Numbered from the stretch's first letter, positions 1,975-39,903 are shown. The stretch: DNA of 64,000 bases from a virus (IMGVR_UViG_3300020404_000006); one strand, 5' to 3'. Notes: a model not told the origin generated them from the letters alone. Translations and numbers: made by a program.

Positions 1975-2155
1975 CTTTGTTTCTTTCTTCTACTAAATGT
2001 TCAACTTCTGAGGCAACTTTGTCCATAACCTCTCTCACATTAGTTCCTGATCCAGAGGTGTGGTAGTAATTCTGCCCTTCGGGGGCATAATGTCTGGTGT
2101 GAAGTGTCCAATGCCACTCTTTAATATCTTTTGAATACCAGAATTGTAATCTCAT
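1967..2155 (-). CDS. Hypothetical protein (62 aa)
   Basis: ORF track; overlaps next start in operon fashion. Confidence 0.6.
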   Translation of the reverse strand: MRLQFWYSKDIKEWHWTLHTRHYAPEGQNYYHTSGSGTNVREVMDKVASEVEHLVEERNKDV

Positions 2156-2177
2156 GAGTGTTTTAATTTATATAGGA

Positions 2178-2192
2178 GGGGGCAAAGCCCCC
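2178..2192 (-). terminator. GC-rich hairpin closing the tmRNA coding piece
   Basis: GGGGGC-TTT-GCCCCC; no clean U-tract follows. Confidence 0.55.
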
Positions 2193-2236
2193 ACAGTCAC
2201 TTGGTTAACAAGGAGTGACTAATCCCCGATTGCCCC

Positions 2237-2332
2237 TTAGGCAGTGACGAGTTCGTCAGTGCGGGCAAATTCTCTTGTGAGAACACGAGAGAATGCTACG
2301 ATGTTGTTCGCAGCGGTGTCGATGTTATTAGC
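2237..2332 (-). other. tmRNA tag reading frame: ANNIDTAANNIVAFSRVLTREFARTDELVTA* (31 aa; 24 aa if resuming at 2311)
   Basis: GCT AAT AAC ATC GAC ACC GCT GCG AAC AAC ATC GTA GCA TTC TCT CGT ... GTC ACT GCC TAA read directly; resembles marine cyanobacterial ANNIVxFSR tags. Confidence 0.85.
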
Positions 2333-2486
2333 ATCTGTGTTTTGCTTATCCAAGCAGGTTTTCAGTCATGTTCCGTATACCCTGTCGAAGCCTGGGCATC
2401 CCCTTGAATGGAGATGAGGGGAATCGAACCCCTGTCCAGAATGTCGGTGACACCACCTACATGTCTTTTTGAGTCATACATCAGGA

Positions 2487-3077
2487 CTATACAATCCATG
2501 ATATCCACGAATATCTGACTCCTTTTGTAACTGGAGTCACTTCATGTGGAAACAAGTACAATGCTGGAAATACTAACACACTTCCCTTCTTTATATTGAC
2601 TGTGTGTTCCTTCCAAAACCTAAACTCACCTCCTTCAAAATCGTCATTCAACACACCCACCACACTGGTAACAGGTATGCCTCTAAATTGTCCTTGAAAG
2701 AAATCTCGTATATGATCGTAGTGAGGACTCAAATAATCGCCAACATTATACTTATTAAATTTTATACCTGAGCAAGCTTCCCAAAATGAACCGCTAGTTT
2801 GACCCTCCTCAACATCATAGTAATTATATTTTTCATGAAAAGCAGCAAACAACTCACCATTTATATGTGGTTGTATTATGTTTGTAGCCTCTGGAGCAGT
2901 TACGGTTGATTGCATATTTGATTCTTTATCAATATCAACCTGTTCAAAGTCCTGATACCACGAGAATTCACCCCATTCACGAGAATCTAAAAGAGATACT
3001 ATCTGATCACATTCCTGATCAGATAGCAAATCATATTCAAATATGTGGTCTTTAAGATTCGGGTATTTTAGGACCAT
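2487..3077 (-). CDS. 2OG-Fe(II) oxygenase (prolyl-4-hydroxylase-like)
   Basis: HYD...GGEF...FP...HEVTPVTKGVRYS facial triad and RxS motif. Confidence 0.9.
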   Translation of the reverse strand: MVLKYPNLKDHIFEYDLLSDQECDQIVSLLDSREWGEFSWYQDFEQVDIDKESNMQSTVTAPEATNIIQPHINGELFAAFHEKYNYYDVEEGQTSGSFWEACSGIKFNKYNVGDYLSPHYDHIRDFFQGQFRGIPVTSVVGVLNDDFEGGEFRFWKEHTVNIKKGSVLVFPALYLFPHEVTPVTKGVRYSWISWIV

Positions 3078-3154
3078 CTTTTAACACCTTCTTGCCAGTT
3101 TGTTTGGCAATATATGCCGCTAGTTCTGGAGTTTCTTCCCACTCCCAGATTTGG

Positions 3155-3457
3155 TTATGTTGTGGATTCTTCTTTTGAATCGTGAGTGTGCGTTTTACCA
3201 ATTTCAACCTCCCTAGATAGAACTTCGATTTCTTTTTCAAGGCCAATGATCCGAAGTTCTGCATCATTAGCCGATCTTTCCAGAGCCCTAACACTGGAAG
3301 AAATTTTTGCAATCTCAGCACCGAAGGCATCTATGTTTTGCAAAAGTAAATTGTTGCCAAATGTTTGAGGATGTCCCTTCTCTGCGTAGGCAGTATCTTC
3401 TACTTCCTCACACTTCTTAAGATATTCCTCCTTTGACATTCTGTTGTTGTCAGTCAT
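3155..3457 (-). CDS. Hypothetical coiled-coil protein
   Basis: ORF track, ATGA overlap with upstream gene. Confidence 0.6.
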   Translation of the reverse strand: MTDNNRMSKEEYLKKCEEVEDTAYAEKGHPQTFGNNLLLQNIDAFGAEIAKISSSVRALERSANDAELRIIGLEKEIEVLSREVEIGKTHTHDSKEESTT

Positions 3458-3981
3458 GAGTATTCCATGTAAATGTTTCCAGATATTGTAGTTCCCTCAT
3501 TGCCTGAGTTGACCATGTGCATGAGGAATGATGGGAATATAATTATACTCCCAGGCTCCAGATTCGGTTTATAGTCTAACGGAAACTGGGGCAAAGTGCA
3601 ACCAAAATGGTTCTGAATGTTATGAATTGAAGGATTAAAAAATGCAGTTCTTGATGTCACATCAACATATATCACATAACTCCATTGACTTTTAGGATGT
3701 ATGTGAGCATCTTGGTAATCATGTTTCTTATAAACATTCCTCCATATATGTCCAAACCTTGCGTTCTTTCCCATCAGTTGTGCTGAATAGAGATTTCTCT
3801 CTACCACACCAGATAAGTAACCCCAGATTGATTCTGGAATCTCTTCTTGTTTCTGCGATGAGAAACTAGACATAACTCCAGAATCCCAAGTGGGTTCTAA
3901 GGGAGCAAGAGGAATACAATCAAATTTAGTTACATCAACCTGATCATGAAAGATAGGTATTCCAAAGATTTCTTGTTTCAT
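3454..3981 (-). CDS. Putative 2OG-Fe(II) oxygenase (TIGR02466-like)
   Basis: HIH...WSYVIYV...IIIFPSFLMHMV...TISGN. Confidence 0.8.
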   Translation of the reverse strand: MKQEIFGIPIFHDQVDVTKFDCIPLAPLEPTWDSGVMSSFSSQKQEEIPESIWGYLSGVVERNLYSAQLMGKNARFGHIWRNVYKKHDYQDAHIHPKSQWSYVIYVDVTSRTAFFNPSIHNIQNHFGCTLPQFPLDYKPNLEPGSIIIFPSFLMHMVNSGNEGTTISGNIYMEYS

Positions 3982-31242: not shown

Positions 31243-31719
31243 TTAATCTTCTGAATCATTTTTCTTTATATAATCAACAAATAAAATGCCTTCTAGATGG
31301 TCAATTTCATGTTGAACTACCCTTGCGGCAATACCATCTAGTTTCCATTTCTTATATTTACCCTCTTTATTCTGGAAGGTTATTTTTATCTCTTTTGGAC
31401 GTAATACCTCCCCATTTTGGTCTGGAACGCTCAAACACCCTTCATCAAATAAGACCTTTTCTTCACTTTTCCACGTTATTTTTGGATTTACCATCAAATG
31501 AGCATATTTGCCATGTTCCTCTGTTGTCTCATCTACTATTATCACTCTTTTATTGATTCCTATCTGTGGTGCTGCTAAACCAATACCATCTGCTTCCCAC
31601 ATAGCATCACACATGTCTTTATAGAGTTCTGTCATTTCCTTTTTATCAAAAACGACTTCCTCAGAGATAACTCTGAGGCATCTATCTCCAATAGTTTTAA
31701 TCTTCTTCGGGGAAGTCAT
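31243..31719 (-). CDS. def: Peptide deformylase
   Basis: All three motifs: GIGLAAPQIG, EGCLS, QHEIDHLEG. Confidence 0.96.
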   Translation of the reverse strand: MTSPKKIKTIGDRCLRVISEEVVFDKKEMTELYKDMCDAMWEADGIGLAAPQIGINKRVIIVDETTEEHGKYAHLMVNPKITWKSEEKVLFDEGCLSVPDQNGEVLRPKEIKITFQNKEGKYKKWKLDGIAARVVQHEIDHLEGILFVDYIKKNDSED

Positions 31720-31822
31720 ATGGTCCTTTTAGTTTACGTTCTAGTTCTCTTTCATCAAGAACTTCATGTAATAGTTTTTTAATTTCTTGTTTTAATTTAT
31801 CTGAGAGCAATTCAAGAGTCAT
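31697..31822 (-). CDS. Small hypothetical protein (41 aa)
   Basis: Hand-translated MTLELLSDKLKQEIKKLLHEVLDERE...; overlaps neighbours. Confidence 0.5.
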   Translation of the reverse strand: MTLELLSDKLKQEIKKLLHEVLDERELERKLKGPYDFPEED

Positions 31823-38385: not shown

Positions 38386-38469
38386 TGGGAGAGGAGGGAC
38401 TCGAACCCTCACGACATTGCTGTCAACAGATTTTAAGTCTGGTGTGTCTACCGATTCCACCACACTCCC
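38386..38469 (-). tRNA. tRNA-Leu(TAA)
   Basis: GGGAGTG acceptor, anticodon loop CTTAAAA, long variable arm, GTTCGAGTC T loop. Confidence 0.93.
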
Positions 38470-38472
38470 GAA

Positions 38473-38546
<74 letters not shown>

Positions 38547-38621
38547 TGGTAGGACTGTCGGGAATTGAACCCGATTGACTCCGTTATAAGCAGAGCGCAT
38601 TAACCAATATGCGACAGTCCC
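38547..38621 (-). tRNA. tRNA-Ile(TAT) with encoded CCA
   Basis: GGGACTG/CAGTCCT acceptor, CTCTG-CTTATAA-CGGAG anticodon arm, ends ACCA. Confidence 0.9.
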
Positions 38622-39794: not shown

Positions 39795-39823
39795 TGAAAG
39801 AGTGCGATGTTATGTGAGTAAAA

Positions 39824-39860
39824 TAGAGACGTAATTTAACGACCCATAGGTCTCGGTTAG
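39824..39860 (-). ncRNA. PhotoRC-II-like RNA motif in psbA leader
   Basis: ACCGAGACCTATGGGTCGTTAAATTACGTCTC with GAGAC/GTCTC pairing in psbA 5' UTR; family assignment from memory. Confidence 0.6.
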
Positions 39861-39903
39861 CGGGTCGAAGGAAGTGTTGAAATCAACACCCCTACATTTA
39901 TAT

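Follow-up and report, generated by a model that had tools for sequence, protein, structure and literature searches.

A circularly permuted two-piece tmRNA gene under selection in a T4-like cyanomyovirus

In 2014, phage genes for transfer-messenger RNA (tmRNA, ssrA) were recorded only in mycobacteriophages and phage G (tmRNA website paper, PMC4131195), and the 2025 tmRNA database paper holds 79 phage sequences (PMC11915505). Buchholz et al. 2022 screened 18,146 phage genomes and found tmRNA in 402 of them, with 133 distinct structures; as judged by ARAGORN, 53 of the 133 are two-piece, and 50 of these 53 come from marine or aquatic phages (PMC9004378). Keeping the hijacked machinery running and tagging host proteins for recycling have both been proposed as roles of marine myophage tmRNAs (PMC9004378). 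Here, we describe a circularly permuted, two-piece tmRNA gene of cyanobacterial type on the minus strand of IMGVR_UViG_3300020404_000006, a stretch of viral DNA of 64,000 nucleotides that we refer to as the window. A preliminary description of the window had treated such a gene as possibly new and phage tmRNAs as mostly one-piece. Neither view is supported: the counts above do not bear out the second, and Table S1 of the same study already contains the permuted tmRNAs of S-SSM7 (94% identical to the window gene), S-SSM6a, S-CAM1, S-CAM3 and S-CRM01 (PMC9004378). The existence of a permuted tmRNA in the nearest relatives is on record, and the window provides a further example. Our literature search found no paper analysing cyanophage tmRNA genes themselves, and in the S-SSM7 genome paper (Sullivan et al. 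2010) tmRNA occurs only in a reference title. The phage-only clade, the duplicated tag start, the variable C-terminal ends and the ancestral tRNA-array position reported below may be undescribed.

Identity and anatomy of the gene

ARAGORN called a permuted tmRNA at 2146-2498 (minus strand) with the tag ANNIDTAANNIVAFSRVLTREFARTDELVTA and a stop. Infernal matched the Rfam family cyano_tmRNA (RF01851; gathering score 70 bits) at 2178-2481 (minus strand) over the entire model (1-288 of 288) with 111 bits and an E-value of 3.3e-29, and the family tmRNA_permuted (RF04321; gathering score 47 bits) at 2237-2457 of the same strand with 84.2 bits. Both programs, which the preliminary description had named as ways to check its reading, detect a permuted tmRNA on the minus strand, and they agree on the complete, permuted cyanobacterial-type ssrA in a cyanophage that it had claimed. 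On these two calls, the whole gene spans 2178..2481 (minus strand). The earlier limits of 2178-2460 had the gene body right and omitted only a 5' leader hairpin at 2461-2477. A protein family search with the small open reading frames (ORFs) overlapping the gene yielded no match, and no riboswitch family matched at the gene in the Rfam scan. Taken together with the structural and coding evidence that follows, the window tmRNA is a real, full-length, phage-encoded permuted two-piece gene under selection.

From relatives in GenBank phages and IMG/VR, we compiled an alignment of 26 distinct genes belonging to the same lineage. Along the minus strand, on which all elements of the gene lie, the T arm, CATCTCC-A, TTCAA and GGGGATG follow one another, which is the circular permutation; each of these details, as well as TTCGAC and the tag frame, was read as previously described. 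The leader AGTCCTGATG precedes the 5' hairpin and is kept in relatives whose upstream genes differ. The hairpin itself (ATGACT..AGACAT, 2461..2477) contains one A.A mismatch in the window; its position is occupied in relatives by ATGACTT..AGTCAT or TTCCAC..GTGGAA, with weak support from covariation (helix 1, 74% paired). The acceptor-piece strand of the inter-piece helices follows at 2437..2457. In the Rfam structure these helices form four segments of 8, 2, 4 and 3 pairs, in line with the four short helices proposed earlier, and the 17 pairs are 92.6% paired over 25 distinct relatives, with compensatory changes in five of them. The T arm (AGGGG-TTCGATT-CCCCT, 2417..2433) is 100% paired in 25 distinct relatives and shows compensatory changes in two pairs.

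The acceptor 3' strand CATCTCC (2410-2416) and the discriminator A73 at 2409 (together 2409..2416) end the acceptor piece. Together with the 5' strand GGGGATG (2397..2403), whose G1 (2403) marks where RNase P is expected to cut, this strand forms the pairs G1-C72, G2-C71, G3.U70, G4-C69, A5-U68, U6-A67 and G7-C66. The stem is 100% paired in 25 distinct relatives and contains compensatory changes: among phage genes, pair 5:68 occurs as AU, GC, CG or UA and pair 6:67 as UA or CG. The G3.U70 pair is kept in 26 of 26 relatives while adjacent acceptor pairs change with compensation, and each of the 96 genes read (39 viral, 57 host) has both G3.U70 and A73. CCA is not encoded, A73 being followed by UUC. 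The sequence thus confirms that G3.U70 and A73 are intact and CCA is absent, as had been stated. The linker TTCAA (2404..2408) is probably removed during cutting of the precursor. Its length of only 5 nt had been remarked on, but a special status for it is not supported: linkers measure 4-9 nt among phage genes and 5-39 nt among hosts, and Prochlorococcus-type hosts have 6 nt.

The coding piece continues with a region (2364..2392) made up of the D-loop-like element GGCTTCGAC at 2384-2392 and, at 2364-2384, the strand that the coding piece contributes to the inter-piece helices. All 26 relatives have the TTCGAC unchanged, and the GG-T around it is almost invariant. Hairpin 1 (TGCTT-GGAT-AAGCA, 2343..2356 in the Rfam structure) is the counterpart of the pre-tag hairpin in host tmRNAs; it is 92% paired, with a UA to CG change in six relatives, and S-CAM-type genes form the same fold from another sequence. 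Beyond the tag frame lies a 3' pseudoknot (2195..2229), in which the loop AGTCA of the stem CGGGGA/TCCTTG pairs with a downstream TGACT. Stem 1 is part of the Rfam model; stem 2, found by RNAalifold, is 88% paired and shows compensatory changes in five of five pairs. The terminal hairpin GGGGGC-TTT-GCCCCC (2178..2192), the last RF01851 helix, makes up the 3' end of the coding piece and is kept in relatives as GGGGGTGnAATGCCCCC. It is possibly a terminator, although it lacks a T run.

Even without an Rfam model, RNAalifold recovered the acceptor stem, the T arm and the inter-piece helices, with compensatory double changes in 18 of 49 pairs. We also assembled a fuller structure from the Rfam helices plus the hairpins and the pseudoknot read from the alignment, and as a control slid the partners by 1-3 columns. 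In this fuller structure 82.8% of cells are paired, compared to 44-52% for slid partners, and compensatory double changes occur in 24 of 86 pairs versus 6-13. None of 500 shuffles reached the observed pairing and double-change values. These data show that the tRNA-like part, the helices and the pseudoknot are maintained by compensatory changes. A further pairing suggested by RNAalifold across the stop codon (TAGGT/GCCTA) displayed one-sided changes only, and the Rfam helices were kept.

Tag reading frame and phage lineage

The tag frame called by ARAGORN (2237..2332, minus strand) consists of 31 codons and a TAA, running from GCT at 2330-2332 to TAA at 2237-2239. The 104 loci gave 92 complete genes, and in none of these is the frame interrupted. 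Across 22 distinct frames, codons 7-16 (AANNIVAF[S/T]R) vary in their third positions only, bar a single S/T change; the first tag codon varies only among GCT, GCA and GCC, and all length differences in the tag tail are multiples of three. The frame is thus shown to be held by selection at the amino-acid level. Combined with the covariation of the structure, this indicates that the RNA is under selection both as tRNA mimic and as message.

Every gene of the window's phage lineage carries a seven-codon N-terminal extension before the conserved core. We attribute it to a 21-nt tandem duplication of the tag start, judging from the viral gene L106, which lacks the duplication and in which the same hairpin and ACAGAT spacer lead directly into GCA AAT AAC ATT GTA. 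In the window the duplication is still visible as ANNIDTA-ANNIVAF, its first copy (GCT AAT AAC ATC GAC ACC GCT, ANNIDTA) lying at 2312..2332 (minus strand). The duplicated copy folds as a small hairpin (hairpin 2, 2321-2335), a 4-bp stem in the window, with two covarying pairs. Its register as read from the window is 32% paired and was rejected; the majority register, one column over, reaches 84%. The stem covaries between AGATG/CATCT and ATCTG/CAGAT, which accounts for amino-acid differences in tag codons 3-6.

Two alanine codons are candidates for resuming translation. The first GCT (2330-2332), chosen by ARAGORN, stands 10 nt past hairpin 1 (12 nt in hosts) with an A at -4, a base that matters for frame choice in E. 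coli. The other candidate, a GCG lying 21 nt further downstream, corresponds by homology to the codon at which hosts resume, and its context GCGAACAACATCGT matches that of hosts nearly exactly. We lean slightly towards the first GCT. Possible tag junctions are X-ANNIDTAANNIV... or X-(A)ANNIVAFSR....

The other end of the tag varies widely. The 92 complete lineage genes end in LATA (34), TVAA (25), LATV (10), LVAA (4), PVAA (4), LVAV (4), LVTA (3, the ending of the window tag) and others. Host tags are nearly invariant, reading ANNIVRFSRQ[A/T]APVAA or ANKIVSFSRQTAPVAA, and all 59 distinct ones end in Ala-Ala (55 PVAA, the rest LVAA or PIAA). Judging from these sequences, an altered C-terminal degron is common in the lineage but not universal, as roughly a third keep a host-like VAA. 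Since the last tag codons lie within covarying helices, part of this variation may be RNA-driven.

The phage genes are far from those of potential hosts. We sampled 121 genomes of the family to which Synechococcus MIT S9507 belongs; RF01851 passed its cut-off in 104 of them, with 274-326 bits, compared to 109 bits for S-SSM7 and 111 bits for the window. We built a maximum-likelihood tree from 98 distinct cyano-type genes (quick search, rooted at the midpoint only). In it, the 59 host genes fall together in a single clade (SH-aLRT 99, branch length 1.02), and none of the 39 viral genes lies inside. The window gene is placed outside this clade of Synechococcus, Prochlorococcus and Cyanobium chromosomal tmRNAs and pairs with S-SSM7 among the viral genes. 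Its lineage comprises 101 IMG/VR contigs, to which the 21-nt duplication of the tag start is common. As the host clade excludes the viral genes, the phage genes are not recent captures from any sampled host; by sequence comparison, they evolve faster or have been long in phages. At this level, the analysis shows the window gene to belong to an old phage-only lineage.

Another group of permuted tmRNAs of cyano type in IMG/VR (L016, L020/L025/L105, L006/L011/L108, L069/L121, L083, L087, L094, L097, L098, L100 and L063) has no seven-codon extension. Most of its tags end in V, examples being ANKIVAFSRSKVATLV, ANNIVSFSRTAVAV and AANKIVKFTRHSAPVAV, and these tags are absent from the sampled hosts; L016 and L006 are flanked by sequence resembling cyanomyoviruses and tRNA arrays. 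We also considered second tmRNA-like hits in host genomes as possible phage-type genes. Two of them, in G016 and G009, are degenerate copies of host type with mutated GGGACTG and TTGCAAC. The third (L277, G039:C1:926930-927148), on a Synechococcus-family chromosome, is a short, divergent second gene beside a normal one, scoring 66 bits on RF01851 (below the cut-off of 70), with the acceptor GGGGGTG/CACCTCC, the tag ANNIKRTERTLAIAA as read by eye, and a tRNA-like part nearest to viral genes. None of the three belongs to the window lineage.

Genomic setting and public records

The window derives from a T4-like cyanomyovirus, a marine Synechococcus phage. Its first 19 kb are syntenic with S-SSM7 and S-SSM6a at ~84.5% identity, the shared gene order including the baseplate hub and tail fibre genes. 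The tmRNA occupies the gap between a 2OG-Fe(II) oxygenase ORF (2487-3077, PF13640) and a small ORF (1967-2155), as in S-SSM7. With cyanomyovirus DNA in S-SSM7 order on both sides, a chimera with host flanks, which the preliminary description had named as a way in which its reading could fail, is excluded. In 11 of 25 relatives, a tRNA-Thr(UGU) abuts the 5' hairpin of the tmRNA and more tRNAs follow downstream; position within a tRNA array appears to be ancestral and may be undescribed. In the window's subgroup the tmRNA lies outside the array, which is found at 38386-38621 of the window.

The phage def gene and three tRNAs that had been noted alongside the tmRNA are present, 29-36 kb away from it. 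With the tmRNA, they had been read as a possible translation-rescue toolkit; the distance in the window contrasts with the 11 of 25 relatives in which the tmRNA is embedded in a tRNA array. Peptide deformylase (def, 31246-31728, minus strand) matches PF01327 at 176 bits and contains the motifs GIGLAAPQ, EGCLS and HEIDH. ARAGORN called the tRNAs: a tRNA-Ile at 38547-38621 (minus strand), whose anticodon is a true UAU (loop CTTATAA) and whose CCA end is encoded, is directly followed by tRNA-Arg(UCU) and tRNA-Leu(UAA), both without encoded CCA. Around the tmRNA, a run of ORFs of 2OG-Fe(II) oxygenase type (PF13640, PF13759), together with an ORF that matches DUF6445 at 23.4 bits, just below the cut-off of 24, takes up 1276-1974, 2490-3077 and 3457-3981 (minus strand). 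The Rfam PhotoRC-II motif is found at 39802-39879 (minus strand) with 42.5 bits (cut-off 39).

In S-CAM1, S-CAM3 and a related contig, a conserved TTGACA-17-TACTAT promoter of sigma-70 type directly precedes the tmRNA (L003:1400-1460, L004:1400-1460, and L093 upstream of 477). This sequence suggests early transcription of the tmRNA by host polymerase in the S-CAM1/S-CAM3 subgroup. Just 3' of the terminal hairpin in the window, TATATAAAT at 2166-2174 (minus strand) resembles a T4-type late promoter; it is kept in S-SSM7-like relatives, ahead of the small ORF 1967-2155.

The phage collection of August 2025 contains cyano-type tmRNAs in no phages other than S-SSM7, S-SSM6a, Sf-FS3, S-CAM1, S-CAM3, S-CRM01 and the uncultured AG-345-P14. 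No tmRNA feature is listed under the blastn matches in the records of these phages, nor in the four regions inspected. Several of the records of S-SSM7, S-SSM6a, S-CAM1, S-CAM3 and Sf-FS3 draw a 'hypothetical protein' coding sequence (CDS) over the tmRNA; in RefSeq S-SSM7 this is the 72-codon SSSM7_025 (L001:2543-2761), an ORF that is not kept in the window. Such CDSs are probably spurious gene calls. As the inspected public records leave the gene unannotated or under a hypothetical protein, cyanophage annotations need a tmRNA pass.

Function, alternatives and comparison with known systems

Searches for SmpB (PF01668), the CCA-adding enzyme (PF01743) and RF-1/ArfB (PF00472), whose positive controls worked, found none of the three in the complete genomes of S-SSM7, Sf-FS3, S-CAM1 and S-CAM3, and tblastn with host SmpB gave no match in the window. 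Host Synechococcus carries an SmpB gene. Lacking their own SmpB and CCA-adding enzyme, the phages must depend on those of the host, which bears out the reliance suggested earlier; the phage tmRNA must presumably use host SmpB, alanyl-tRNA synthetase (AlaRS), RNase P and CCA-adding enzyme.

Taken as a whole, the data are best explained by a phage two-piece tmRNA that works in trans-translation with host factors, and we consider this reading likely. Modelled on the established two-piece tmRNA biology of Caulobacter and cyanobacteria, the gene would be transcribed as a single precursor, which host RNase P would cleave 5' of G2403. The 5-nt linker would be trimmed to A2409 and a host enzyme would add CCA, giving an acceptor piece of ~50-75 nt and a coding piece of ~226 nt joined by the four short helices. 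After charging by host AlaRS via G3.U70/A73, host SmpB and EF-Tu could deliver the RNA to ribosomes that stall where an mRNA is broken or has no stop codon; translation would then resume on the tag frame (2332-2237) and end at TAA, releasing the ribosome. Such a gene may serve to keep ribosome-rescue capacity high in infection, as host mRNAs degrade and host RNA synthesis fails, and its phage-specific tag may also alter the fate of tagged proteins.

Several observations weigh against this reading. Few isolates carry a tmRNA of this kind, some seven phages among 50,697 records, and most cyanophages can therefore dispense with it; a benefit in infection is something we infer. The resume codon is ambiguous between the two alanine codons. 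A consensus sigma-70 scan of the window found no promoter at the tmRNA start, its four sigma-70-like sites comparing with 3.5 expected by chance; the only promoter-like element before the gene is an extended -10-like TGTATAGT at 2486-2493, read by eye, which overlaps the upstream stop codon. Likewise, none of three terminator-like sites in the window lies at the tmRNA 3' end. Marine metatranscriptome contigs (three studies; four runs aligned) cover parts of 1781-2370 and 2596-3565. Over 2129-2370 they show no mismatch. In contigs of this kind, RNA is indistinguishable from DNA carried over into the sample, and strand and ends are not visible. The tRNA-like part (2371-2595) is uncovered in run X1.

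A possible, if rather unlikely, alternative that partly overlaps with trans-translation is that the main value of the RNA lies in re-routed tagging. The phage tmRNA would compete with that of the host, so that stalled products receive a longer tag with a different C-terminal end (...ELVTA); relative to the host ...APVAA degron, this end would be recognised poorly or by a different protease. ClpX of E. coli recognises tags chiefly by their last residues (LAA), and variants such as AAV or ASV are degraded more slowly. The contrast between uniformly Ala-Ala host tags and the diverse ends of the 92 lineage genes fits this idea, as do the extension fixed throughout the lineage and the mostly V-ending tags of the second viral group, which lacks the extension. 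However, a non-host end cannot be required when about one third of the lineage retains VAA, and the covarying helices around the C-terminal codons may have driven part of the variation. A further reading, which we hold only tentatively and would sooner doubt than adopt, is that cyanomyoviruses keep an old tmRNA lineage with a rebuilt message, taking over translational quality control and altering the fate of stalled proteins. The fixed seven-codon duplication would then be an N-terminal extension or a new structured leader, and the degron would have drifted from the host-invariant PVAA. If true, the phage changes what becomes of stalled proteins instead of simply supplementing host tmRNA.

Defences that cleave tRNAs can be counteracted by phage tRNAs, as has been shown, and the phage tmRNA and tRNAs might similarly replace host ones cut by anti-phage nucleases or toxins. 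The tmRNA sits within the phage tRNA array in many relatives, and its acceptor stem varies where that of hosts is an invariant GGGGCUG. A sequence so distant from the host (109-111 versus 274-326 bits) could escape a sequence-specific nuclease, but long and fast evolution in phages explains the divergence equally well. No nuclease directed against cyanobacterial tmRNA is known to us, and we regard this counter-defence role as improbable. Still less probable is a decoy that binds SmpB or AlaRS without trans-translation and thereby shuts down host ribosome rescue. Without a phage SmpB, the RNA must indeed compete for the host protein, and phage genes of such a type exist, a decoy action having been reported for the mycobacteriophage DS6A gene that consists of a tRNA-like domain only (PMC4131195). 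A decoy, however, would not need the tag frame, whereas ten codons change at third positions only, indels stay in frame and the pseudoknot covaries; selection as tRNA mimic and message argues against a decoy as well as against a relic. Finally, there is next to no chance that the locus is a misassembled host fragment, an integration-site remnant or a decaying pseudogene: although tmRNA genes are common integration sites and their fragments occur in prophages (PMC9004378), the gene is full length, lies between cyanomyovirus genes in S-SSM7 order, groups with 101 viral contigs apart from every host gene, shows compensatory changes indicative of continued selection, and looks different from the degenerate second copies in hosts with their mutated GGGACTG and TTGCAAC.

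Phage-borne tmRNA genes mean that some viruses invest in the host ribosome-rescue pathway. Besides its 101 IMG/VR contigs, the lineage includes five cultured phages (S-SSM7, S-SSM6a, Sf-FS3, S-CAM1 and S-CAM3), and the hosts of these phages include Synechococcus WH8109, WH8102 and WH7803, which makes the role of the tmRNA testable.

Among known systems, S-SSM7 and S-SSM6a (Kyanoviridae, Lipsvirus) are closest to the window. Their whole gene is ~94% identical and sits at the same genome position, and the 31-residue tag has the same ...TREFARTDELVTA end. The surrounding genome is only ~84.5% identical, the first seven tag codons of S-SSM7 encode AKSSDTA instead of ANNIDTA, and their GenBank/RefSeq records annotate the hypothetical protein (SSSM7_025) rather than a tmRNA. 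S-CAM1, S-CAM3 and Sf-FS3 belong to the same lineage, with the seven-codon extension and the AANNIVAFSR core, while S-CRM01, AG-345-P14 and short-tag IMG/VR contigs likewise carry cyano-type permuted genes in T4-like cyanophage DNA. These other cyanophage tmRNAs are 72-75% identical to the window gene or less, adjoin or lie inside tRNA arrays (in S-CAM1/S-CAM3 with their own sigma-70-type promoter), and encode tags of 21-23 residues ending in STVAA or ELATA; the short-tag group is without the duplication.

The two-piece tmRNA of picocyanobacteria (Synechococcus, Prochlorococcus, Cyanobium; RF01851) shares with the window gene the permutation, the T arm, G3.U70, A73 and the missing CCA. It also shares the four inter-piece helices, the pre-tag hairpin, the 3' pseudoknot region, the terminal hairpin and the tag core ANNIV.FSR. 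The window gene differs by its low RF01851 score (111 compared to 274-326 bits in hosts) and its place outside the host clade, by an acceptor GGGGAUG where hosts have invariant GGGGCUG, and by a tag that combines the 21-nt duplication (7-residue extension) with a 24-nt mid-tag insert and ends in LVTA, not PVAA. Moreover, the phage gene has no neighbouring or genome-encoded smpB in the window and four complete relatives.

Further afield, OM43 phage Melnitz and pelagimyophages (HTVC008M) are marine T4-like phages that also encode a permuted tmRNA, with no phage smpB reported (PMC9004378). Their genes are of the alpha structural class, with tags such as ANDD...ALAA, and that of Melnitz contains a glutamine riboswitch in its 3' domain (PMC9004378), for which no counterpart matched in the window. 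Mycobacteriophages (Bxz1 group) and Bacillus phage G carry an ssrA that similarly depends on host SmpB, but theirs is a standard unpermuted gene and their hosts are not cyanobacteria (PMC4131195). Phage DS6A, in turn, encodes a tRNA-like domain only, which lacks a tag frame and inhibits tmRNA (PMC4131195), whereas the window gene keeps a selected frame.

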